Translations under genes and position numbers: made by a program
NCBI GenBank assembly: GCA_035221665.1
Contig: CM069137.1
Location: 54,808,001-54,872,000, forward strand
Source: Okamejei kenojei
Taxonomy: Eukaryota
Length of the DNA: 64,000 bases
Reading direction: 5' to 3'
In this document: positions 2,992 to 63,954 of the stretch, piece by piece
Layout of the letters: every line of letters begins with the position of its first letter
How positions within the stretch are numbered: position 1 is the stretch's first letter
The notes under the pieces: generated by a model
The model's database searches: none
What the model saw: the letters and a program-made list of their open reading frames with translations, nothing else
What the model was told of the DNA's origin: nothing

Positions 2992-3138
2992 GGGGCTCCA
3001 TCCCGGCAAACATTGGGCAACAGTGCATGAGCGAACCAGGTATTTACTACTCTGATGGAATGCAGTGGATCCACATGCAAGGCAACACCCGAATGTTATG
3101 TACCTGCCTGGGTACTGGAGTGAGCTGCCAGCAACGGT
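2992..3138 (+). CDS. fn1: Fibronectin exon, FnI-6
   Basis: ttttctag|GG...CQQR T|gtaag; [37 protein letters not shown] matches FnI-6. Confidence 0.93.
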
Positions 3139-23600: not shown

Positions 23601-26600
23601 CTTTAACGATTAGATACCCTTTCAAAAGTCTGATAACTGTCGGGAAGAAGCTGTTCCTTAAACTGATAGTACGCGCTTTCAAGCCTTCGTATCTTCTGCC
23701 CAATGAGAGAGAGAAAAGAGAATGAGCAGTCCTGATGTAGTGGCTGCTGTCAAGAGGCCATATGAAGTGTAAATTGAGTTGATGGGATAGGAGAGGGTGA
23801 TTTGCGTGATGGACTTGATTGTGTTTACCACTGCAATTTCTTGGCAGTCTTGGACAAAACAGTTGTCCAACCAAGTTCATGCATCCAGTTAGAATTGCTC
23901 TCAGTTCAAAGCAAGGAGACTGCAAGGCTGTGCCCCCAGACAAATCGGATGCAATGTGCTCATTATTTCCTTTACATAGGGTGTTAACAGGTGTGAAATT
24001 TCTAATCCCTTTCTGCGCCCTGTTAGCTGGTGTGAAATTCCTGAGTCCTTTCCATGCCATTATTAACCAGTGTGAAATTTCTGATGTGGAAACGGTCATT
24101 TAAAAAAGTGTGGAAGGCTGGGAAAGTAATCTACAGCGAAAACTGCCAATAATTGCATTCTTGTAACGTGCTTCAGTAAATAAGCAACAGATGTATATTG
24201 GCAAGGAAGACATGAACCAGGCACCTTACCTTATCCTAAAGGCATGGGCATTTATTTATTCATGTATTTATTTCCATGGCAGTGGGCCTGAGATTCATAC
24301 CAATATGTCAGTGTGTATAATCCAAACTGATATGCCTGTCGGTTTTCAAAAAAGGTACTGTGCAGTCAAAGGTACCAGCTTTAAATGCGCCTTTGAAAGA
24401 TGTTTGCTCTTGTAATGGAGGGCTGGGTGTCTACACAGTTATCAGGAGTGTTTTCTTTGGCGATCTGGACAATATCTGGCCCTCGACTAACGTGCTAAAA
24501 TGCTTTGGTTCAACATCACATTTTTATCAGTGGGACCTTGCTGCATTCAACAGTGGCATCACTTCAGAAGCATATTACCAGCTGCAAATCACTTGAAGAT
24601 GTTCTGAAGTTGTGAAAGGCACATTCACTCTTTACCTGATTAACTACAAAGGGGGAGGCTGGAGTTTTTTAGTGAGCCAGTACCTCTTTCAAAGTTTTTA
24701 TTTGCAGGAGTCCACAGTATCTCAGTCATTTAAGCAGGCCACAAATTGCCAGACTCATTGAATTTATTTTACCACAGTGTGATTTGAACTAACAATTTTA
24801 TGGGATCTCTCTACAGCTTTGTAACTAACCACGAGCCTAAAAAGCCCTTTGTTCTCAAAACGACTCAAAACGACTACTCTGGCGCTTTGATCCACCTTTC
24901 ATCTTGTTTGTCCAGCACAATCCGACGTGGTGGACCTATCCAGAATATATCCTAACATCCTGAATCATTAGGAATGCGTGAAAACAGAAATAATTCACCA
25001 TTTCATTATACAGACAAACTTGAACCGTATAGAGCTCTGTTTATGTAATTCTATGGAATTGTAGATCACATAGATGTTTATGCAATTCCATGGAATTGTA
25101 GATCATAGAGTCGTACAGCATCGAAACAGACCCTCTGGCCCATGGTAGTGGCCATTCCATCTGTTGAACATGTATTAATCCCATTTATTAGGTCCATTGT
25201 TTTCTCTACCGTGACGATTTAAGATACTTCTAACATGCCATGACACTATCTGCTTCCATTATTTTAGACTGAATATTCCAGAATCCAACACCCTGTGTGT
25301 AAGAAATCTACTCCTTCCACCTTTCCTGAACCACGTTGTAGCTGACCTGCCCTTTGACCTCAAAGCTTCTAGGCAAAAGAGTTGGTGACTTGGTGAAAAC
25401 AGGATGGAGCTTGCATAATGTTCCATTGCTCAATCCATTCTCAATAAAGAGGTTGCCATTTCCAGCTCAGTATTGGCATAAAAACAGCCCTAGAAAGCAG
25501 CCAAATGTGTTAAAACCTCCAAGGCCAATACACTGCAACATTGTCACACATATCCATCACATTGGAACTTAAGACCCAAGCCAGGCCTTTGGTACATGGC
25601 CGGAATATTTCAAATCTCTTGAGTGTTTTTGTTGTTGCCTGTGCTACCTTTTAAATCAGACAGCCTCTCCTCAGCCATTTCTCCCCATGAACCTCCTCAA
25701 TCCCCACTCCTTTCCAAAATGTGCACCTGGCTGCAACTTCCTTACTGCATTTTCTTGGATCATCCAGCATCTGATTCTGAACCATCACATGATGTAGGTT
25801 CCTCCCTGCCACCTCCATCTACAAGCTCATCTGATTTCAACAAGGCCGGTGCTTCCTCTGACAAGAGAAGTGGTTTCATACTCTGCCATAATATTCAGTG
25901 GTCTACACAACACCATGATATTCCCCACAAGTGCTTTGTGCACTGGAGCTCATATATGATCTTGGGTCTCTTGAGCAAGGTACCCAATATTCCAAAGTGA
26001 ATAGCCGGATGGTTTTGAAGAGATGGCTGAAAACCAGAGGAATATTTATTGTGTGAAAAAGTTGTCAGACTGAGAAAATAACGATTATATGCACAAAAAT
26101 GATTGCATGCTTCCTGCTTGACTTATGTTTTTAATAAAGCCCCTTAGGAACGTTAAAATAGTTTATTAGCCTGTAACAGTTTGTGATTTGGCTCAACCAG
26201 CTAATAAGCAGAACAGATTGGAAAAATATTTTTGTTATGGGTATGGGTATGTGTGTTGATCATCTGCAAGCTATATATATATAGTGGCTTGCAAAAGTTT
26301 TCATTCCCCTTGAACTTTTTCACATTTTGTCACGTTACAACCACAAACTAAATGTATTTTATTGGGATTTTATGTGATAGACCAACACAAAGTGGTGCAT
26401 AATTGTGAAGTAGAAGGAAAATGATACATAGTTTCCAAATTTTATTACAAATAAAAAACTGAACAGTGTGGCGTGCAAAAGTATTCAGCCCCCGAGTCAA
26501 TACTTTGTAGAACCACCTTTCGCTGCAATTACAGCTGCAAGTCTTCGGGTATGTCTCTACCAGCTTTGCACATCTAGAGACTGAAATTTTTGCCCATTCC

Positions 26601-29600
26601 TTTGCAAAATAGCTCAAGCTCAGTCGGATTGGATGGAGAGCGTCTGTGAACAGCAATTGTCAAGTCTTGCCAGAGATTCTCAATTGGATTTAGGTCTGGA
26701 CTTTGACTGGGCCATTCTAACACATGAATATGCTTTGATCTAAACCATTCCATTGTAGCTCTGGCTGTATGTTTAGGGTCATGGTCCTGCTGGAAGGTGA
26801 ACCTCCGCCCCAGTCTCAAGCCTTTTGCAGACCCTAACACGTTTTTTTCCAAGATTGCCCTGTATTTGGCTCCATCCATCTTCCCATCAACTCTGACCAG
26901 CTTCCCTGTCCCTGCTGAAGAAAAGCATCCCCACAGCATGATGCTGCCACCACCATGTTTCACAGTGGGGATGGTGTGTTCAGGGTGATGTGCAATGTTA
27001 GTTTTCCACCACACATAGCGTTTTGCATTTATGCCAAAATCTTCAATTTTGGTCTCATCAGACCAGAGCAACTTCCTCCACATGTTTGCTGTGTCCCCCA
27101 CATGGCTTGAGGCAAACTGCAAACGGGACTTCTTATGGCTTTGTTTCAACAATGGCTTTCTTCTTGCCACTCTTCATAAAGACCCGATTTGTGGAGTGCA
27201 CGACTAATGGTTGTCCTGTGGACAGAATCTCCCACCTGAGCTGTGGATCTCTGCAGCTCCTCCAGAGTTACCATGGGCCTCTTGGCTGCTTCTCTGATCA
27301 ATGCTCTCCTTGCCCGGCATGTCAGTTTAGGTGGACGGCCATGTCTTGGTACGTTTGCAGTTGTGCCATACTCTTTCCATTTTCGGATGATGGATTGAAC
27401 AGTGCTCCATGAGATGTTCAAAGCTTGGGATATTTTCTTATAACCTAACCCTGCTTTAAACTTCTCCACAACTTTATCCCTGACCTGTCTGGTGTGTTCC
27501 TTGGGCTTCATGATGCCCAAGGAACATTGTTTGTTCACTAATGTTCTCTAACAAACCTCTGAGGCCTTCACAGACAGCTGCATTTATACTGAGATTAGAT
27601 TACACACAAGTGGACTCTATTTACTAATTAGGTGACTTCTGAAGGCAATTGGTTGCACTGGATTTTATTTAGGGGTATCAGAGTAAAGGGGGCTGAATAC
27701 TTTTGCACGCCACACTTTTCAGATCTGCGCACGCACACCACACACAGCTACAGATACAAATATCCTCACTTAGAATTTACTTTTGCTGCCCGTTAAGTTA
27801 CTTTGTGTGTGTGTTCTATGCAGAAAAACTCAAGAATGCAATGGCGCACGGCGACCATTCCAGGCAACACGCATACCTACACGATTAGTGGGCTGCGCCC
27901 AGGTATCACCTATGAGGGCCAGCTGGTCAGCATCATGCGCAACGGGCAGAGTCATGTCTCCCACTTTGGATTCACAACCTCGCGTGGATCTCGTAAGTAA
28001 CACATCTAGATGGGGCCTCTTTCTCTGACCCCTAATACAGCCTTCTTTGGTGGCTCATTTACCAACGGTGCAGAGCATGAGTACACTGCGGCAGCACACC
28101 TGTCAGGAAAGACCCTGCTACTGACAGTAATTTTTTCTGTGATTTAAGAAATGTAGTGATTACAGTACTTTCACCTTCGCCACAAACCTGTGATTATTGC
28201 CCTGCAAATGCTTCTCCCCTGATCCTCATTTGGGTACAATGTGGGGAGGTTTTGCACAGGAATAGGACCAACCAGTTTGATCTCTTAAATAAAGTTACCT
28301 CTTCAATATCCATCAAGATCCATAAAACCAGCCATATTGAAACTTCCAATTGACTACTAGCCTTGACGGTGTTTTGCAGAAAGATGGAAGGATCCCCATT
28401 CCCTTTACTGTGGGATTCTGACACCACTTTGCGAATGGTCTTTTTCAAGTATTAAAAATTGTGTCTCCTAATTATCCATTTTAATCCTTCATTTAAACGC
28501 TTCAATTCAATCTGAAACGGAATCCTTTTCTCTCTGTCTCCATTCTGACAAAGGGTTTCTGACCTAAATAATTAATTTTGTTTCTTTTTTAACAGATGCA
28601 GTTTGACATGATGTGTGTTTTAAGTATTTTGCATCTACAGTTTTTTTTTCAACTTAGTTCACCTTTCATAATCAGGAGAATGGAAGCCAGTCCCCTGAAA
28701 CCTGGCCTCGTAAAGCTAACCCACATTTGTAACTCCAAAACTGCTATTGGTATTGTCAAACTGCTATTGGTATTGTCACCAAGTATTTTTCCCTCTCCAA
28801 CAGTTCCAGACGATAGCAATGAAAGGGATAACAACGAGGGGATGTATCCTGAGTCCATCGCTGAAGTCACTTCCAACAGTTTTGTGGTGTCCTGGTCATC
28901 TGCCTCCAGCACAGTGTCAGGCTTCAGGATCAAGTACACGCTCAGCGAGGATGGCGCGCAGCCCCAGTACTTACGTAAGCCCTCCTACGGCAACTGTCAC
29001 TTCCTAGTGTGTCGTACGCGTGAGCTCGCACCAAATGAAGCTTCCGGGTGACCATCTTGGGCACTCTCCTCGGTTCATTTTAGATCACTGAGATGGAATT
29101 TAGTCACAGATTTATACAGCATAGAAAGACTCTGCAGCCCACCAGATTCTAACACCAATCCTACTTTGATATTATTCAATTTTTCCCACTTTCCCATTAA
29201 TTCCCATTCTCTCCAAACTATACCACTCGCGTAATGGCAATTTACTGTGGACAGTTATTCTATTAGTCACTACATCTTTGGGGTGTGGGAGGAAACTGGA
29301 GCACCCAGGGAAAACCCATGTGGTTACAGGAAGAACAGGTAAGCTCCACAGATAGCATTCAGGAATAGGTTTGTGCCCAGGTCGCTAGAGCTGTGAGGCA
29401 ATGCTGCTACGAGGTGAGCCTTTTCGTTAACTCTGCCATCTCCTGTTCAGTTCTTCCCAACCTTCCCTAATAGCCCTGAATGATGTTTCTCCAAGCTTCT
29501 GAAGACCTGCGGAGTGGGAAGTTTCTTTCTCTTCAATTGGAGGGATGGGGTAGTGCGGGAGCTGCATAATGGAGGATAAGGGTTTGTTGGACTGAAATAA

Positions 29601-53600: not shown

Positions 53601-56600
53601 GAGCATCACACTGTGCTTCTTGCAAGTATTTTCCAGACAGGGTGAAGAGACCTTTGACTGGGGATGGAGTACTTCACCCAGTTGCATCTACTTTGGAGAA
53701 TAGCTTTCCTGGCTTGGCATGGCTTTTAGGTCTAAAGCCAGGACATTTCCGATAACAGCTTTGTGGAGATGGGACAACAAAATAGCTGATGGTGCCCACC
53801 TCTGTCCAGTAATTTGGCCATGTCTTAAACCATCATTTCCCAGGCGTCTCCAAGCTGCTCCTGGGACGCGAGTGGCGTGAGGGAAACCAGCTGTTTACCT
53901 GAGAATCTGCCCTTTCTTCCTACAGAGCGAAGCGGTAAGAAGGTGAAGATGGGGAAAGACAAGGAGGTAACCGTCAGCTGGATGACCCCACCTGTTGCAC
54001 CAGTTAATGGTTACAGGATCACTGGCGTACCGTTGAGCGGGAATGGCCAAGTTTTAACTTGGACTGTGGCATCAGGTGCGTCTCCAATCTGCTCGACCAC
54101 AAACTATTGGGGGGGTGGGGGTGTGGGAGATTTCAATTTTCCAAAAGTAGGCTGGGAAACACATTCTGTAAATGGGCTGGATGGTTTGGAGTTTTTAAAA
54201 TGTGTGCAGGATAGTTTTTTGCAGCAGTACATAGAAGTATCGACCAGAGAAGGGGCAGTGCTAGACCTCCTTTTGGGAAATGAGGCAGGTCAGGTGATGG
54301 AGGTATGCGTTGGTGAGCACTACGTGACCAGTGATCACAATACCATTAGTTTCATTATAATTATGGAGAGAGTCAGAACTGGACCTAGGGTGGAGATTTT
54401 TGATTGGAGAAAGGCTAACTTGGAGGGAATACGTAAGGATTTAAAAGGAGTGAATTGGGACACTTTGTTTTATGGGAAGAATGTAGAAGAGAAATGGAGG
54501 AAAAAGAGAGATATCTACAATAATTATAGGAGGCATGGAGTAAATGAGGTGCTAGAGGAGTATAAAGAATGTAAAAGGAATCTTAAGAAAAAAATTAGGA
54601 AGGCTAAAAGAAGATATGAGGTTGCTTTGGCAATAAAGGTGAAAGTAAATCCAAAGGGTTTCTACAGCTATATTAATAGCAAAAAGATAACGAGGGATAA
54701 AATTGGACCATTAGAGAGCCAGAATGGACAGCTATCTGCAGAGCCAAAAGAGATGGGGGAGATATTGAACCATTTATTTTCTTCGGTATTCACCAAGGAG
54801 AAGGATATTGAACTCTGTGAGATAAGGGAAAAAAGTAGAGTAGCTATGGAAACTATGAGATTCAAAGAGGAGGAAGTACTGACAATTTTGAAAAATATAA
54901 AAGTGGATAAGTCTCCAGGTCCTGACAGGATATTCCCTAGGACATTGAGGGAAGTTAGTGTAGAAATAGCAGGAGCTATGACAGAAATATTTCAAATGTC
55001 ATTAGAAACGGGAATAGTTCCGGAGGATTGGCGTACTGCGCATGTTGTTCCATTGTTTAAAAAGGGTTCAAAGAATAAACCTAGCAATTATAGACCTGTT
55101 AGTTTGACGTCAGTGGTGGGCAAATTAATGGAAAGGATACTTATACTTAGAGATAATATATATAAGCATCTGGATAAACAGGGCCTGATCAGGAACAGTC
55201 AACATGGATTTGTGTCTGGAAGGTCATGTTTGACAAAGCTTCTTGAATTTTTTGAAGCTGTTACTAGGGAAATTGATGAGGGTAAAGCAGTGAACGTTGT
55301 CTATATGGATTTCAGTAAGGCCTTTGACAAGGTTCCCCATGGAAGGTTGGTTAAGAAGGTTCAATCTTTGGGTGTTAATGGCGGAGTAGCAAGATGGATT
55401 TAGCAATGGCTGAATGGGAGATGTCGGAGAGTAATGGTGGATGGCTGTTTGTTAGGTTGGAAGCCGCTGACCAGTGGGGTGCCTCAGGGATCTGTGTTGG
55501 GTCCACTGTTGTTTGTCATGAACATCAATGATCTGGATGATGTGGTGGAAAATTGGATAAGTAAGTATGCAGATGATACTAAGATAGGTGGTGTTGTGGA
55601 TAATGAAGTCGATTTTCAAAGTCTGCAGAGAGATTTGGGCCATTTGGAAAAGTGGGCTGAAAGATGGCAGATGGAGTTTAATGCTGATAAGTGTGAAGTG
55701 CTACATCTTGGCAGGACAAATCAAAATAGGGCATACATGGTAAATGGTAGGGAATTGAGGAATGCTGTGGAACAGAGAGATCTAGGAATAACTGCATAGT
55801 TCCCTGAAGGTGGAATCGCATGTAGATAGGGCGGTAAAGAAAGCCTTTGGTGTGCTGGCCTTTATAAATCAGAGCATTGAATATAGGAGTAGGGAAGTAA
55901 TGTTAAAATTGTACAAGGCATTGGTAAGACCAATTCTGGAGTATGGTGTACAATTTTGGTCGCCTAATTATAGAATGTCAACAAAATAGAGAGAGTACAG
56001 AGGAGATTTACTAGAATGTTGCCTGGGTTCCAGCAACTATGTTACAGAGAAAGGTTGAACAAGTTAGGTCTTTATTCTTTGGAGCGCAGAAGGTTAAGGG
56101 GGGACTTGATTGAGGTCTTTAAAATGATGAAAGGGATTAGCAGAGTTGACGTGGATAAGCTTTTCCCATTGAGGGTAGGGAAGATTCAAACAAGAGGGCA
56201 TGGCATGAGAATTAAGGGACATAAGTTTAGGGGTAACGTGAGGGGGAACTTCTTTACTCAGAGAGTGGTGGCTGTGTGGAATGAGCTTCCAGCAGAAAAG
56301 GTGGAGGCAGGATCGATTTTAACATTTAAAAGTAAAGTGGATAGGTATATGGACGGGAAGGGAATGGAGGGGTATGGTCTGAGTGCAGGTAGATGGGACT
56401 AGGGGAAAGCAAATGGTCGGCACGGACTGGAAGGGCCGAGAGGGCCTGTTTCCGTGCTGTAATTGTTATATGGTTATATGGTGTCGGGTTTGTTAGTGTG
56501 GCTCATGCCATTTGTCTGGTGTTTATATCTGCATAATGTTTTTAAGTGGCTTTATGTTGTTACCCCTACAACGGCCACTCCTTCACGAGTGGAGGTAAAG

Positions 56601-59600: not shown

Positions 59601-62600
59601 ATGTAGAGGAGGATTCCATGCGTCTGCCGTGGGAGAGTCCGGACGGCAAGGTCATTTCATACAAAGTAATCTACTCCAATCCCGTGGATGGAGAATGTAT
59701 AATCACACCCACCTCCCACTGCAAGGATAACTCCGTCCAGCTGACTTGCTTGCGCCCAGGCACAGAGTACACAGTACGGGTGTACAGTACAACTGGAGAC
59801 CAGAACATCCCCATTATCATGGGTACACATGCTGTAGATAGGCATCCACAGCTGATGATCTGTAAGCAACTGATGGCGAAACTAATGTTTTCAAATTAGC
59901 TGCCCACGACCTATAGCACAAGGATGAGTCCTTTGTTGGTTAGAAAACACGTGCTTCATTATGTTGCTCAGGTGAGGAATAAATGTAACTCCCTTTCTTT
60001 CTTACCTTGCAGCCATTCCAGCACCGACCGATCTGGAGTTTATGCAAGTGACTCCAACAAGTATGACAATGAGCTGGCATGCTCCTGCTGTCCCAGTGAC
60101 TGGTTATAATGTGATAGTGACACCAAGGGAGGTGACAGGTCCAAGCCAGAAACTGACCCTTGGCCCAGATAACACCAGCGCCACAATCTCTGGCCTCATG
60201 GTGAGTCCGCCCCATGCCTGCAAAGACCATCGTTGATTTGTTGTGTCAAATAACCTGTTCCATTCTGTGTAATTGTTATGGACTCACCTGCATAATCTTA
60301 TTTTTAAACGCAGGTTGCGACGAAATACGACATTATGGTTTACTCCGTCAAAGATACCATGACGAGTAATGCCCTGCATGGAATCAAAGCAACATTAGAC
60401 AGTGAGTCATCTACTTCATCCTAACTCCTGCTAATGTCCACGGAACCTTTCCTCCAATTTCACTCTTATTCCCACTGCCTTTTCTCATTGTCTTGTGAAA
60501 CTGGACTTGCTGGTTTATACCCTCAATAACCTTGAGCATGCCCTCATGTCTCCCCAAACCCCAAATCTCTGCTACCCACTCCAGCTTGCAGCCCTCCTCC
60601 AACTTTGGCCTCTTGTATATCCACGATTTCTGTCATTCCCCTTGTTTGGCATCAATGCCTTTCGTTGCCACGGTTCTCAAACTGCCCCTTCACTCATCTA
60701 AGAACCGCAGCAAAAACATCTACATCTACTCGTCCATGCCTCCGGCCACCTCCCATTGTGCATGAATCAGCATGTCCGGTAACAACTCACTGAGGGCTTA
60801 ACCATGTACCTGACAGCTAATGTTGCACCCATGTTCCAGACGTTAGTTCACCGCGCCAATTCAACGTGTCCAGTGTGACAGAGAATACCATCACCCTTCA
60901 ATGGCGCACCAAGGCAGAACCTATCACTGGCTTCCAGATCAACGCTGTGCCTTCTAACATCGGTGGCACCATCCAGAGGATCTTGGGGCCTAACATTCGC
61001 ACCTACACCATCACAGGTAAAGCCCACGGCATCTGCTGGTGCCTTCAGGTTAAGTAATTTTGTCCGTAATACTTCCAGCTCCTTTTACCAGGCACTCAAC
61101 AGTGCCTCATAGACAGATGCAGCACACACGGAGATTGTTTGGCCCATCTTGATGCTAGCTCTTGGAAAGTGTCTTCCATTCATCTTGCTCTTCATCGCAC
61201 TCCCCTCAAAGATTTATCCGTTTCTCTTTGTAAAAGTTACTACAGCTTCATCCTTGATTTCACAAAAGGGAGGTGTACCAGGAAACAGGTAAATTAATTT
61301 TTTTGCGTCAGGAAAGACATTTTAATTAGCATTTGAGTAGCATTTTGCTAACGTGGGTTTCTATTCATGGAGATTGGAGTGCTATTCATTACAGGGAAAG
61401 TAAACTCTATGGAAGACATACTCCAAGGAGTCCAAGGCATTAGAGTGAAAATATGTGAATCAAGGAATTAATGTATTGAAATGTCTTCCATTGGGATTTC
61501 ATATTTTGCATTTTAGCTCATGACAATGTGTAAAAAAATCTTCTCTCTTATTTGTATTGCTACTTATCATAACACAGTTCTCCCAATTACTGTCTTGCCA
61601 TTGGAGTCAGTCACTCCTTGTTTATCATTTTCAAACCCGCAGTAATTTCTATCTTGTTTGTGTTAATCATCAAGTGACCATTTTACTCAAACCCCATTTT
61701 ATTCTGCCCAAATTCCAATCAATTTCCCCCGTATGCTGTCACTCACCAGCACTCCAGTGGCCAGTTATCCTATCAACCTGCATGTTTTGGGAAGTGGGAG
61801 GAACTGGAGATTCCAGAGAACCCCAGCATACACAGGGAATTTGCCCAAACTCCGCAGACCGCATGGGAAGTTGGGATTGAACACAGGCCCCAGACACTGG
61901 AAGACAACGGCTTCCAGCTGTGCTACTGTCTTCTTCTTCTTGCGTCTGGTGTGCACAGCCTAAAGTTGTAGGACAATTTGTTCTATTTGATCTTATTTGA
62001 TTTTGCACGCCAGGCTGATTGCATTCGTCGAAACAGGGCGGACCACATGAAGGTTGCAATCTTCCACCCCTGCGCTACTGTGCTATTGTGTTAAGTCTTT
62101 CCTTTGCTCTCTCTCCTTTACGAAATGCAGTTAATGGCCATTTCTTATTCATGATACCCTTCTGCACATATTGTGTCCTCTGCATGGCTCCTGGGCCCCT
62201 ATTCACATGTGGTGGTCTTAGAAAGTAATGTATACCATGAGTTGCGAATTACATGTGCTGTTAAACTGACCCCTGATTGGAGGCATTTGAAGAATCTTGT
62301 ATTTTATTCCCATGATGGTTCTTCATTTCCCCTTGAGCTTGATGGTAAAAATGTTCCTTCCCTTTTCACAGGCCTTCACCCTGGCACGGAGTACAAAATC
62401 AACATCTTCACCCTGAGTGGCAATTCACGCAGCCCACCTGCCTCCATCACAGTCACAACTGGTGAGGATCCCTCCAGGGCAAGGGCCTAATTCTGTTTGC
62501 CTTGATGTTGTTCCTAGTCATTGAGTTGTAAGCACAGAAACATGCCCTTCAGCCAACCCCATTCATACTAACCATCCCCTATCCAGCTATACTTGTCCAT

Positions 62601-63954
62601 TTAGTCTGTAGCCTTCTAAGCAATTCACATGCTTATTGAGATTCTTCTTAAATGCAGTGTGTATCTGCCTCCACTGCCCATTCAGGCAGCACATTCCAGA
62701 TTCCAGTTACTCAGTGTGTGAAAAAAATAATCATTTTCAGGTCTCCTGTACCCTTACAATGGGTAATAGCCTCCAATTGTCTACACTGTTGACTGCCCCT
62801 CAGGATTGTATGTGTTTCAGGTTCCTCCAACTGTCTTCTGCAGCAAAGGAAACAATCCAAGCCTACCCAGTCTCTCGTGAAAAATGAAACTCCAGACATC
62901 ATTGTATTTTTTTGCGAATTTTTCTTCAGTTTGGTTATAAACTGAACAATGTTAACTTAGGGCAGAACATTTCCCCAGCAATCCCTAGGTTGTTGTTCCC
63001 AGGAGTTGCTAAACCTGGACTGCTGATCTGTAAACCTCACCTGACTGCTGAAATAGGCACTGGTAAACCATGGCCAGGAGGAGCACTGCAGGAAGACCGT
63101 GTTTGAATGAAATCTTAGGGTAATCACCACTCACAGTTAATGCCTCACTCTCTTATAAAGGACCTAACGCCTTTTGAGTCTGTGCTTGGAATAATCCCCA
63201 TCATATTTATACCCTCCCCCTAACTTGGCTCCCTGTGGGCACTCCTCTCTCACACACCTTCCCAATTCTTCAGTCCTCCACGCATGTCAGGGACAATTTA
63301 AACTGGCTATCCCACTGGTCCTTTGGATGTGGGAGGAGATCAGAGCACCTGGTAGAGGATAGACCACGCGATCGGAAGGTTAACGATAGACAGCACCCAA
63401 GGTCCGGATTGAAAGTGGGTCACTGGAGCAGCAGCACTGCCTGCTGCGCAACTGTGTCATTACTGAGGTGTTCCTGCTCCGACATTAATATTGCAGTGCT
63501 CAGTGGGCTATATTGAAGGGGATGGAGAACGACTCTACACCTATTCATCTATCCCGTCTTTATTTTGATGGTGACTGAAATCAAGGCCTGAGGTGTCGGG
63601 ACATCAGGAATAGAGTGCAGCCTGGAGGCCATGCCAGCTGCTCTGTCTGGACAGGAGCTGCCATTCAATATGTGACGGTGGTTGCATGCATGGAAATGGG
63701 ATAGGCATCAACATCCAAACAAGTTGAATGGAATTAATGTCTTCATTGTTTCAACCCTGTACCCTTTAACCCAGCTATTGATTCGCCATCGAATCTCCGA
63801 TTCATCTCCACGACGCCCGACAGCATCATGTTCCTATGGCAACGTCCCCGCTCCCGAATTACAGGGTATCGCATCACCTACCAACCCAAAGGAGGGCAAC
63901 TAATGGAGCTCAACCCACAGCCGCCAACCGTGGCCCAGGAAGCGATTATCACAG
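2992..63954 (+). CDS. fn1: Fibronectin, multi-exon and partial (FnI-6 to FnIII-14a; 32 exons including EDB and the EDA homolog)
   Basis: Exon translations are colinear with the fibronectin module order (I6-II1-II2-I7-I8-I9-III1..14 with EDB and EDA), GRGDSP lies in III-10, and AG/GT boundaries have matching phases. Orthologue versus paralogue is not resolved. Confidence 0.96.
3387..3810 (-). mobile_element. Helitron-like 3' portion with tandem repeats (right boundary approximate)
   Basis: Minus strand GGGACC-aaacg-GGTCCC hairpin, then acttggt-CTAG|T; internal ccccaacgcaa repeats shared with the 593-1543 element. Confidence 0.65.
4402..5144. mobile_element. PIF/Harbinger-type non-autonomous DNA transposon
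   Basis: TIRs AGGGGCTGaaCCACTGCGGtGAcCTAATC / GATTAGATCGCCGCAGTGGGACAGCCCCT; TAA TSD at 4399-4401 and 5145-5147. Confidence 0.88.
5394..5573 (+). CDS. fn1: Fibronectin exon, FnII-1
   Basis: [55 protein letters not shown]; donor T|gtaagt; tandem acceptors make the start uncertain by 3 nt; missed by the ORF track. Confidence 0.93.
6346..6525 (+). CDS. fn1: Fibronectin exon, FnII-2
   Basis: cag|...[58 protein letters not shown]|gtatgg. Confidence 0.95.
7487..7639 (+). CDS. fn1: Fibronectin exon, FnI-7
   Basis: ttccag|[52 protein letters not shown]|gtcagt. Confidence 0.95.
8111..8915 (+). mobile_element. Helitron-like non-autonomous element, GC-rich, containing a C58 tract
   Basis: 5' A|TCTTTATACTTTTAAAACTCTGTG resembles the other Helitron-like 5' ends; degenerate 3' end gtcccactgaaATAG|T. 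Confidence 0.5.
8491..8548. repeat. Poly-C tract, 58 nt
   Basis: Direct count. Confidence 0.95.
10067..10195 (+). CDS. fn1: Fibronectin exon, FnI-8
   Basis: tcacag|[44 protein letters not shown]|gtatat. Confidence 0.95.
11211..11434 (+). mobile_element. CR1/HER1 LINE 3' tail
   Basis: End of ORF2 followed by gaagggccgaatgacctactcctgcacc and a ctatgttt tail. Confidence 0.85.
11594..11654. repeat. (TA)n microsatellite
   Basis: About 30 TA units. Confidence 0.97.
12618..12755 (+). CDS. fn1: Fibronectin exon, FnI-9
   Basis: ctctag|[47 protein letters not shown]|gtaagg. Confidence 0.95.
16129..18110 (-). mobile_element. 5'-truncated, decayed CR1 LINE (RT region plus 3' tail) carrying nested insertions
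   Basis: Minus-strand ORF fragments [14 protein letters not shown]...[21 protein letters not shown] and FADDTKL; tail caatagacaata. Confidence 0.93.
17368..17531. mobile_element. Penelope-derived inverted-repeat element
   Basis: Hairpin gaaggagatagg...cttcttc-agac-gaagaagg...cctatctccttc; 13-bp TSD atcacattgaatg at 17355-17367 and 17532-17544. Confidence 0.75.
18524..19096. mobile_element. GC-rich non-autonomous DNA transposon (hAT-like termini, 6-bp TSD), copy 1
   Basis: TIR CAGAGATGCCAA/TTGGCATCTCTG; TSD AGTACG on both sides; subterminal TTACGG repeats. Confidence 0.88.
22831..22946 (+). CDS. fn1: Fibronectin exon, FnIII-1a
   Basis: ggcag|[39 protein letters not shown]|gtaagt; compare human SHPIQW...YILRWRP. 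Confidence 0.92.
23190..23505 (+). mobile_element. tRNA-derived HE1/V-SINE-like element
   Basis: B-box ggttcgatcc, central ttgtgcattctccctgtga domain, CR1-like tail ending ctctaaactaaa. Confidence 0.8.
23560..23900 (-). mobile_element. Rex/Babar-like LINE 3' fragment
   Basis: Minus-strand [35 protein letters not shown] resembles the Rex1 C-terminus. Confidence 0.7.
26282..27725 (-). mobile_element. Tc1 (IR/DR type) transposon with frameshifted DD34E transposase; right outer TIR missing
   Basis: Left TIR tagtggcttgcaaaag after a (TA)n run; transposase from the ATG at 27511 (MKPKEH...[32 protein letters not shown]) is split by frameshifts near 27170 and 26600. Confidence 0.93.
27824..27992 (+). 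CDS. fn1: Fibronectin exon, FnIII-1b
   Basis: tgcag|[57 protein letters not shown]|gtaagt. Confidence 0.94.
28804..28974 (+). CDS. fn1: Fibronectin exon, III-1/III-2 linker and FnIII-2a
   Basis: [42 protein letters not shown]|gtaagc; a second in-phase acceptor would start the exon at 28810. Confidence 0.92.
29905..30215 (+). mobile_element. HE1/V-SINE-like element
   Basis: gagttcgatcc B-box, conserved central domain, ctctaaactaa tail. Confidence 0.75.
31130..31714 (+). mobile_element. CR1 LINE 3' fragment
   Basis: ORF2 C-terminus ([27 protein letters not shown]) and a ctattgt tail; same family as 16129-18110. Confidence 0.9.
32028..32153 (+). CDS. fn1: Fibronectin exon, FnIII-2b
   Basis: tccag|[42 protein letters not shown]|gttggt. 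Confidence 0.93.
32249..32338 (+). CDS. fn1: Fibronectin exon, FnIII-3a
   Basis: ttgcag|[31 protein letters not shown]|gtacct; upstream intron is only 95 nt. Confidence 0.93.
33162..33356 (+). CDS. fn1: Fibronectin exon, FnIII-3b
   Basis: ctgcag|[66 protein letters not shown]|gtacaa; alternative in-phase donor after 33341. Confidence 0.93.
36271..36543 (+). CDS. fn1: Fibronectin exon, FnIII-4
   Basis: ttccag|[26 protein letters not shown]...[30 protein letters not shown]|gtaagt. Confidence 0.95.
38200..38466 (+). CDS. fn1: Fibronectin exon, FnIII-5
   Basis: atgcag|[30 protein letters not shown]...[30 protein letters not shown]|gtaagt; KLDAPT site retained. Confidence 0.95.
39095..39189 (+). 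CDS. fn1: Fibronectin exon, FnIII-6a
   Basis: tcacag|[32 protein letters not shown]|gtaaat. Confidence 0.93.
39329..39609 (+). mobile_element. CR1 LINE 3' end, near-identical to 56203-56481
   Basis: [15 protein letters not shown]...GRWD* followed by a ttatatgg tail. Confidence 0.9.
40266..40434 (+). CDS. fn1: Fibronectin exon, FnIII-6b
   Basis: taaag|[57 protein letters not shown]|gtaagt. Confidence 0.94.
41079..41159 (+). CDS. fn1: Fibronectin exon, FnIII-7a
   Basis: atgcag|[28 protein letters not shown]|gtaacg; compare human PLSPPTNL...VSWERSTTP. Confidence 0.88.
43186..43377 (+). CDS. fn1: Fibronectin exon, FnIII-7b
   Basis: tccag|[65 protein letters not shown]|gtaatt. Confidence 0.94.
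44334..44606 (+). CDS. fn1: Fibronectin alternatively spliced EDB (EIIIB) exon
   Basis: 273-nt phase 1-1 exon: [50 protein letters not shown]...[16 protein letters not shown]; donor G|gtgaat. Confidence 0.96.
44770..45798 (+). promoter_or_regulatory. RBFOX-type (T)GCATG intronic splicing enhancer cluster downstream of EDB
   Basis: TGCATG at 44770, 44813 and 45767; GCATG at 45292 and 45794; this is the intron in which mammalian EIIIB TGCATG enhancers lie. Confidence 0.6.
44945..45240 (+). mobile_element. HE1/V-SINE-like element, young copy
   Basis: gacccgggttcgatcccgact B-box, CpG-retaining body, gggccgaagggcctgtttcc...ctaaactaaactaa tail. Confidence 0.85.
45866..46045 (+). CDS. fn1: Fibronectin exon, FnIII-8a
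   Basis: cctag|[40 protein letters not shown]...SDNMVVLT G|gtggga. Confidence 0.94.
46845..46934 (+). CDS. fn1: Fibronectin exon, FnIII-8b
   Basis: cctcag|[31 protein letters not shown]|gtaact. Confidence 0.93.
48255..48520 (-). mobile_element. HE1/V-SINE-like element
   Basis: Reverse complement of the same SINE body. Confidence 0.75.
48775..49041 (+). CDS. fn1: Fibronectin exon, FnIII-9 (synergy-site module)
   Basis: tcacag|[22 protein letters not shown]...ERVPISRT...[14 protein letters not shown]...GQQST A|gtaagt. Confidence 0.95.
49510..49675. mobile_element. Penelope-derived inverted-repeat element
   Basis: aactcagcaggtcagg / cctgacctgctgagtt inverted arms around tttcgggtcgagacc. Confidence 0.65.
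50119..50235 (+). CDS. fn1: Fibronectin exon, FnIII-10a
   Basis: ctgcag|[40 protein letters not shown]|gtaggt. Confidence 0.94.
50591..50920. mobile_element. PIF/Harbinger-type MITE
   Basis: ~48-bp TIRs AAGCCCTGTCCCACGGTAC...; TTA TSD at 50588-50590 and 50921-50923. Confidence 0.9.
51237..51401 (+). CDS. fn1: Fibronectin exon, FnIII-10b with RGD
   Basis: aacag|[48 protein letters not shown]; RGD codons at 51350-51358; donor G|gtagga. Confidence 0.96.
51859..52436. mobile_element. Tc1/mariner (Tc2/pogo-like) MITE
   Basis: TA flanks; decayed TIRs TCATATTTCTCGGCAA / TTGCTGGGAAATACAG that differ only by transitions. Confidence 0.55.
52815..53009. mobile_element. Decayed Penelope-derived element flanked by a 24-bp direct repeat
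   Basis: cttcttgtggggcttgaacctaaa at 52791-52814 and 53010-53033. Confidence 0.55.
53926..54075 (+). CDS. fn1: Fibronectin exon, FnIII-11a
   Basis: ctacag|[51 protein letters not shown]|gtgcgt; divergent N-terminus, but the W...PVxGYRxT pattern is kept. Confidence 0.88.
54120..56481 (+). mobile_element. CR1 LINE, 5'-truncated ORF2 (APE C-terminal half plus RT), mildly decayed
   Basis: GDFN...LDL...SDH endonuclease motifs, [36 protein letters not shown]; in-frame TAG at 55401-55403, frameshifts near 55795 and 55975; ttatatgg tail. Confidence 0.96.
57877..57990 (+). CDS. fn1: Fibronectin exon, FnIII-11b
   Basis: tttcag|[39 protein letters not shown]|gtaggt. Confidence 0.94.
58230..58817. mobile_element. 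GC-rich non-autonomous DNA transposon (hAT-like termini, 6-bp TSD), copy 2
   Basis: TIR CAGAGATGCCAA/TTGGCATCTATG; TSD GAAGTG on both sides; internal ~84-bp tandem duplication. Confidence 0.88.
59574..59837 (+). CDS. fn1: Fibronectin EDA (EIIIA)-homologous exon, divergent; ancestral donor mutated, possible donor shift to 59861
   Basis: tggcag|[40 protein letters not shown]...[11 protein letters not shown]...IMGTHAV lies between III-11 and III-12; the homologous boundary reads G|ataggc. Confidence 0.7.
60013..60200 (+). CDS. fn1: Fibronectin exon, FnIII-12a
   Basis: ttgcag|[44 protein letters not shown]...ISGLM|gtgagt. Confidence 0.95.
60314..60401 (+). CDS. fn1: Fibronectin exon, FnIII-12b
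   Basis: acgcag|[30 protein letters not shown]|gtgagt. Confidence 0.93.
60840..61016 (+). CDS. fn1: Fibronectin exon, FnIII-13a
   Basis: ttccag|[60 protein letters not shown]|gtaaag. Confidence 0.94.
61930..62070 (-). mobile_element. 141-bp non-autonomous retroposon (Ingi/Vingi/RTE-like bipartite) with an (AAG)n tail
   Basis: Minus strand GGGGTGG...gcaagaagaagaag; 11-bp TSD tg(t/c)gctactgt at 61919-61929 and 62071-62081; inserted into a SINE. Confidence 0.8.
62017..62070 (-). ncRNA. Minimal HDV-like self-cleaving ribozyme motif
   Basis: GGGGUGG-AA-GAUUGCA-ACC-UUCAUGU-GGU-CCGCCCU-GUUUCGA-CGAA-UGCAAUC gives P1, P2, P3, L3 and J4/2. Confidence 0.8.
62372..62461 (+). CDS. fn1: Fibronectin exon, FnIII-13b
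   Basis: tcacag|[31 protein letters not shown]|gtgagg. Confidence 0.94.
63775..63954 (+). CDS. fn1: Fibronectin exon, FnIII-14a
   Basis: acccag|[61 protein letters not shown]|gtaaaa. Confidence 0.94.

Follow-up and report, generated by a model that had tools for sequence, protein, structure and literature searches.

A high-copy, 141-nt retroposon family of Okamejei kenojei with a predicted minimal HDV-like ribozyme as its 5′ head

We analysed 64,000 nt of the Okamejei kenojei genome (contig CM069137.1, positions 54,808,001 to 54,872,000; in the following called the window) and delineated a short element that belongs to a multi-copy, non-autonomous retroposon family. The element encodes no protein. 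With a probability of roughly 0.78, its predicted 54-nt minimal HDV-like ribozyme frees the RNA at the first nucleotide, G1, and the protein of an RTE-type LINE copies it from the (AAG)n end. The structure and the mobile family are well supported; the enzyme is only predicted.

The initial annotation of the window described a 141-bp insert on the minus strand with an (AAG)n tail, and these limits stand, with the tail included (Table 1). The target site duplication (TSD) has the reported length of 11 bp, but one mismatch between its copies, at a CpG, had been missed. Fibronectin type III exon frames (Pfam fn3) flank the element on both sides on the plus strand and confirm that this copy is antisense to fibronectin; fibronectin is also their best match in PDB (E 9e-14), and a splice donor lies near position 61016.

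Table 1 Features of the element and its host intron (window positions; nt numbers count from the 5′ end of the element).
Feature	Position	Strand	Remarks
Whole element	61930–62070	−	141 nt; subfamily A copy of the high-copy non-autonomous retroposon
TSD, 5′ copy	62071–62081	−	11 bp; differs from the 3′ copy at one CpG-type site
TSD, 3′ copy	61919–61929	−	11 bp
Predicted minimal HDV-like ribozyme, nt 1–54	62017–62070	−	predicted cleavage between 62071 and 62070
P1 5′ strand, nt 1–7	62064–62070	−	partner nt 30–36 at 62035–62041
P2 5′ strand, nt 10–16	62055–62061	−	partner nt 48–54 at 62017–62023
P3-L3-P3′, nt 17–29	62042–62054	−	C22 with G37 (62034) forms P1.1; C24>U private to this copy
5-nt loop replacing P4	62028–62032	−	the RTE head has ~95 nt folded here
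J4/2	62024–62027	−	predicted catalytic C44 at 62027; nt 45 is G, T or A by subfamily
Body	61942–62016	−	between ribozyme head and (AAG)4
(AAG)4 tail	61930–61941	−	repeat identical to the tail of the genome's RTE LINE
Host intron	61017–62371	+	ends approximate; splits one fibronectin type III module between two exons; element antisense

Given its antisense orientation within a fibronectin intron and its C24>U change, the window copy is most likely inert. Its body can form a closing stem of 8–10 bp (within element nt 60–123) and a 6-bp hairpin (nt 90–106) in subfamilies A, B and D, neither of which is found in subfamily C. Common variants of this hairpin in the Logan contigs are confined to its loop (96, 98, 99). 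The last ~30 nt are the part common to all subfamilies and read LC-T-P, as the ends of RTE ORFs do.

Several other features surround the element. At locus L001 (G000:C7:54879376-54882538), 10,957 bp downstream, window positions 60430–63582 are repeated with 99.4% identity over 3,164 bp, including the element and its fibronectin flanks; either part of the gene was duplicated in tandem or this is an artefact of the assembly. A broken LINE, which we take to be of the CR1-like clade, lies within the fibronectin gene at 53829–56402 (+), its reverse transcriptase (RT) matching L1 and R2 structures, and a Tc1-type transposase fragment (DDE_3, HTH_Tnp_Tc3_2) lies at 26577–27173 (−). A suspected resemblance between the left flank and the tail of a SINE could not be confirmed.

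The 54-nt head fits a P4-less HDV-like double pseudoknot and is therefore a predicted self-cleaving RNA. Its helices nest as initially drawn: P1 (nt 1–7 with 30–36), J1/2 (AA), P2 (10–16 with 48–54, seven Watson–Crick pairs), P3 (17–19 with 27–29) and L3 (20–26). Some details needed amendment. P1 had been given one G-U wobble, found at 1–36, and has a second G·U at 5–32; P1.1 is the single C22–G37 pair as proposed, with U21·U38 possible alongside. J4/2 indeed reads C44 G A A with the putative catalytic C, and the supposed vestigial P4 is a 5-nt loop. The single C>U change noted in L3 of this copy was correct, as C24 is kept by 40 of 47 ungapped copies. The predicted catalytic C44 is present in 41 of 48, U20 in 45 of 48 and G25 in 45 of 47 ungapped copies. 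The CPEB3 ribozyme, a single-copy motif of mammalian introns that has a P4, presumably resembles this head in its L3 and in having just one P1.1 pair with a U·U mismatch after it; in Rfam, a 121-nt stretch surrounding a further copy of the element had no CPEB3 match.

Published work is consistent with activity of such a minimal fold: a one-pair P1.1 accompanied by U21:U38 is reported still to give fast cleavage (PMC13635239), ribozymes without P4 are described as active (PMC6326823, PMC10879173), and P4 is described as dispensable (PMC3774820). Some SIDER heads of trypanosomes, as reported in PMC4035085, fold well and are nevertheless inactive in vitro.

A search with an HDV structure descriptor, a tool that the initial annotation had proposed for the whole genome, yielded one locus in the 64-kb window, this element, and no match on either strand of 60 Markov-1 random 64-kb sequences; the descriptor was written with this element known, a lower bar than a blind test. 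For the 121-nt stretch around the other copy, two HDV families of Rfam rank first and second by bit score, both in register and both far below gathering (20 versus 50 bits, E 0.36, and 14.4 versus 44 bits, E 1); both models contain a P4 region. Rfam gave no HDV match on the last 4 kb of the window. Minimum free energy folding (z 0.23) was discarded as a test, being uninformative for a pseudoknot.

The same evidence bears on whether the element is a conventional Pol III SINE whose head is of degenerate tRNA type and whose pseudoknot is coincidental, which we consider highly improbable. Weak resemblances to an A-box and a B-box are visible by eye at nt 5–15 and 37–46, with 2–3 mismatches each against the consensus, but ARAGORN detects no tRNA in four of four loci, Rfam gives no tRNA family, T-arm pairing is missing, and the head is homologous to the 5′ end of an RTE LINE (see below); the empty descriptor result in all 60 random sequences further argues against coincidence. 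Nor did Rfam and ARAGORN find a head derived from tRNA, 5S or 7SL RNA.

The predicted cleavage site had been equated with the 5′ boundary of the element, and this holds in other copies, which begin at G1 and have no common upstream sequence. Among 90 copies picked by their 3′ pattern, 37 have a recognisable core; in these, the ends are precise, with column conservation of at most 0.59 at −25 to −1 and at least 0.81 at +1 to +7. Since conservation is at background upstream and high from +1, the copies do not pass the predicted cleavage site; extension 5′ beyond it would have spoken against the ribozyme. By our reading of the 90 copies, a set enriched for truncation by the exclusion letter of the pattern, 60 reach the first head nucleotides, one breaks off near nt 14 and the head is missing from 29. 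Of 28 copies picked by their head, 23 have a TSD of 9–15 bp, whose edge falls within −3 to +2 of G1, and 5′-truncated copies with a TSD are present as well. The family thus has the features of a non-LTR retroposon: TSDs of variable length, a simple-repeat 3′ tail and 5′-truncated copies. We dropped the reading that truncated copies of 30 nt mean that the RT needs just 30 nt, truncation being uninformative on recognition. The flanks carry T at −1 in 21/37 and A at −11 in 22/37 copies, a weak target preference.

In the 2.76-Gb genome, a 35-nt head pattern has 4,829 exact matches (control 0). A looser core gave 5,774 matches on the plus strand of the whole genome (control 40), and doubling this count yields ~11,500 core copies; the minus-strand count includes overlapping duplicates. 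We distinguished by their bodies the subfamilies A and B, an intermediate D, and C, which is older and shorter. Measured against the column majority and outside CpG sites, the median divergence is 3.2% in A (n = 12), 2.6% in B (n = 15) and 9.0% in C (n = 6). A subfamily B copy was found in all 24 listed sequencing runs, covering 0.67–1.00 of its words, from 15 studies with ten organism labels plus a metagenome; these are contigs and say nothing on transcription. For four of these runs the Logan contigs were examined, and all four contain it; a metagenome search with a 20-mer gave no match.

Some copies are rearranged. At loci L076, L077 and L078 the segment between the P2 arms is inverted, with the first 9 nt and the body in place; four copies look so among 100 of 463 matches listed, three of which were confirmed by reading. 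At L132, L146, L150, L172, L207 and L217, and at L138 and L199, the tail of the element is fused to other repeats, and the points of fusion are almost the same. At L146 an 11-bp repeat occurs 864 nt upstream, which template switching would predict.

The proposed check for covariation in P1 and P2 gave a divided answer: there is no double-sided change among the copies of the family, whereas double-sided changes appear when the head is compared with that of the RTE LINE. All 18 pairs and the five core nucleotides are intact in 11 of the 49 copies (out of 90) that passed an identity filter. Inserted copies decay neutrally, and the informative variation is that among source elements. Within nt 1–54 of these 49 copies, variants above 20% occur only at nt 8 (J1/2), nt 32 (U·G to U–A, a CpG site) and nt 45 (after the catalytic C), and all three are compatible with the fold. 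Positions 32 and 45 are again the main head variants in the Logan contigs of the four runs mentioned above; we take nt 45 to be the position that is flipped out in HDV. With three sites, this placement is modest evidence for the fold, and the comparison with the RTE LINE is the stronger evidence.

This LINE was detected by a search for DUF6451, which led to one family of ~3.3 kb with an (AAG)n tail; 150 of 908 candidates were scored, and the 50 of these that were read all belong to it. The LINE encodes RVT_1 and DUF6451, and many of its homologues are of ~1000 amino acids with endonuclease, RT and DUF6451 domains, a set established for the RTE clade, to which we assign it. Three long copies begin with a stretch identical to the head of the short element in 17 of 19 nt at the same positions, 10–28, and J4/2 is identical in both heads. 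With P1 aligned by register to this common core rather than by sequence, eight of the 18 pairs are changed on both sides (six of the seven P1 pairs, one P2 pair and P1.1, from C–G to G–C), one is changed on one side, seven are unchanged and two, 16–48 and 17–29, are lost, so that the RTE fold is imperfect at the P2/P3 junction. Its P4 is a folded domain of ~95 nt, and in Rfam the RTE head scores below gathering (11.9 versus 44 bits). The head has 24 exact 25-mer copies in the genome; where the TSD was read, RTE copies start exactly at its edge, and these TSDs measure 10–13 bp. Thus, the 5′ end of the short element is homologous to that of the RTE LINE, with a different P1 sequence.

These results also bear on another possibility, in which the head, a remnant of an RTE ribozyme, today functions chiefly as an internal promoter or as a stable, cap-like 5′ fold, the precise ends coming from a start site at G1. 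Such dual use has precedent, as Pr77 of L1Tc is described as both promoter and ribozyme (PMC3383444, PMC4035085) and LINE 5′ ends are described as driving transcription (Kojima 2018, PMC5786205); moreover, cleavage of the head studied here is a prediction. However, all catalytic-core positions and the 18 pairs are kept across subfamilies 3–9% apart, and the boundary coincides with nt 1 of P1 in two families with unlike P1 sequences. We therefore regard a mainly promoter-like or cap-like head as unlikely and prefer the self-cleaving head.

The same RTE family produces shortened elements. Eleven of its 24 heads belong to internally deleted elements in which the head is joined to the last 200–400 nt, so the RTE clade does give rise here to non-autonomous elements with a ribozyme head. 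These derivatives, of ~0.5–1.3 kb, are found at L251, L253, L255, L257, L260, L264, L266/L267, L268, L271, L272 and L273; seven have a common 3′ junction close to nt 3005 of the long copy. No intact ORF was seen among the RTE copies examined. Their median non-CpG divergence, 3.8% and 5.2%, overlaps that of subfamilies A and B and not that of C, whose 9% (n = 6) suggests a greater age than that of the sampled RTE copies. At the 3′ end, the short element reads RLCTP before its tail, and xLC occurs in 91 of 120 C-termini of RTE homologues; as a likeness of sequence, this LC motif is only suggestive of a relation to RTE. By blastn, the subterminal 3′ sequence of the RTE LINE could not be aligned to the tail of the short element. 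The ~3.3-kb LINE is a relative of the short element, not its parent.

A partner LINE sharing both termini, proposed as a check, was not found with six exclusion patterns, in the Logan contigs or by tblastn of 230 loci, nor was a LINE with the P1 or the subterminal sequence of the short element. The patterns were anchored in the head (100 of 463 matches listed, and all 83 of a second pattern), in the middle (100 of 217 listed, and all 48) and in the tail (100 of 143 and 100 of 253 listed), and each would miss a parent with a probability of ~25–60%. The matches listed were mutated, truncated, rearranged or older copies only. Neither 20 atypical loci nor seven singletons contained an RT frame, and no interior junction was seen among 20 of 165 loose ends in the Logan contigs. 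A third family with the head core was not found in 80 matches, a weak test as the last letter of that pattern also excluded most RTE heads.

The missing parent leaves some room for an origin from, and mobilisation by, a Vingi, Ingi or other non-RTE LINE with an HDV-like head, and Ingi and Vingi are indeed described as producing bipartite derivatives (PMC5786205). We consider this very unlikely, given the agreement with RTE in the head core (17/19 nt at positions 10–28), J4/2, the tail repeat, the length of the TSD and the LC motif. The initial annotation had suggested a SINE-like family of ribozyme plus LINE tail that borrows the RT of an Ingi, Vingi or RTE element; a non-autonomous retroposon stands from this, and the evidence, gathered with DUF6451 as the protein searched for, points to RTE rather than to Ingi or Vingi.

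Under the mechanism we favour, a copy would be transcribed by read-through from host promoters. The head of the RNA would then fold and cut at G1, freeing the element from the host transcript, and full-length copies would keep the whole ribozyme because the cut defines nt 1. The protein of an RTE-clade LINE would use a nick to prime at the (AAG)n end and reverse-transcribe the RNA into a new site, probably in trans and supplied by the RTE found here or its sister. The family may have arisen by internal deletion of an RTE lineage since lost or missed, with P4 lost too.

We also considered a bolder reading, which is possible but doubtful: the family may represent an orphan class of ribozyme-headed, SINE-like elements in which a P4-less 54-nt ribozyme is the whole head, a promoter is not needed and a non-parental RTE recognises little beyond (AAG)n. 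If so, with about one in five headed copies fully intact (11/49), the genome would contain live self-cleaving RNAs in numbers of the order of a thousand or higher; sense copies would cut pre-mRNAs and leave a genome-wide antisense bias in introns. Three antisense copies and one sense copy were counted at the four loci with a host exon frame nearby, too few to judge such a bias.

Ribozyme-headed non-autonomous LINE derivatives are already known, namely NARTc, SIDER, the R2 SIDEs and bipartite RTEs, and the concept of a short element made of a ribozyme plus a LINE tail is already published. According to a 2019 review, HDV-like ribozymes are employed by some non-autonomous SINEs (PMC6765202). The bipartite non-autonomous RTE LINEs (Kojima 2018, PMC5786205), as characterised there, likewise lack an ORF and combine a LINE-type 5′ end with a LINE-type 3′ end; a 5′ ribozyme was proposed to explain their retained original 5′ end, and RTE, Ingi, Vingi and R2 are listed as makers of such elements. 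The present element is far shorter (141 nt), its head is just the ribozyme, and a parent for both ends was not found. NARTc, RIME and SIDER1/2 of trypanosomatids (PMC4035085) are also short, non-autonomous and dispersed, with an HDV-like ribozyme at the 5′ end, and the heads of NARTco and several SIDERs were reported as active. According to the same source, they differ in belonging to the Ingi/L1Tc clade, in a 77-nt head that has a P4 and doubles as a promoter, and in their protist hosts. R2 SIDEs (PMC3414825, PMC6765202) resemble the family in being internally deleted, ribozyme-released and mobilised in trans, but belong to the R2 clade and insert site-specifically in 28S rDNA.

As for the ribozyme itself, the minimal HDV-like and theta ribozymes described in PMC10879173 share the absence of P4, a short J1/2 and a length of about 54 nt. 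Nearly 99% of the matches given there are from phages, many adjoining tRNAs, and the eukaryotic set searched was small. The P4-less R2 ribozymes of silkmoth differ in a J1/2 of 216–498 nt (PMC3774820). New here are a head that consists of nothing but the 54-nt minimal ribozyme, the size of 141 nt and the ~10^4 copies in a vertebrate-type genome. No published description of this 141-nt family was found in the literature searched; it may already be named in Repbase or Dfam.

Reports of minimal HDV-like ribozymes come almost exclusively from phages and metagenomes. The family would give the minimal ribozyme a clear job in an animal genome, together with ~10^4 natural mutants and a natural partner for covariation. 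It makes testable whether a ribozyme alone can replace a SINE promoter. A natural RTE template of 141 nt is also relevant to template design in RTE-based gene insertion, for which platforms are reviewed in PMC13708176. For the host, it makes testable how a genome tolerates thousands of intronic self-cleaving RNAs.
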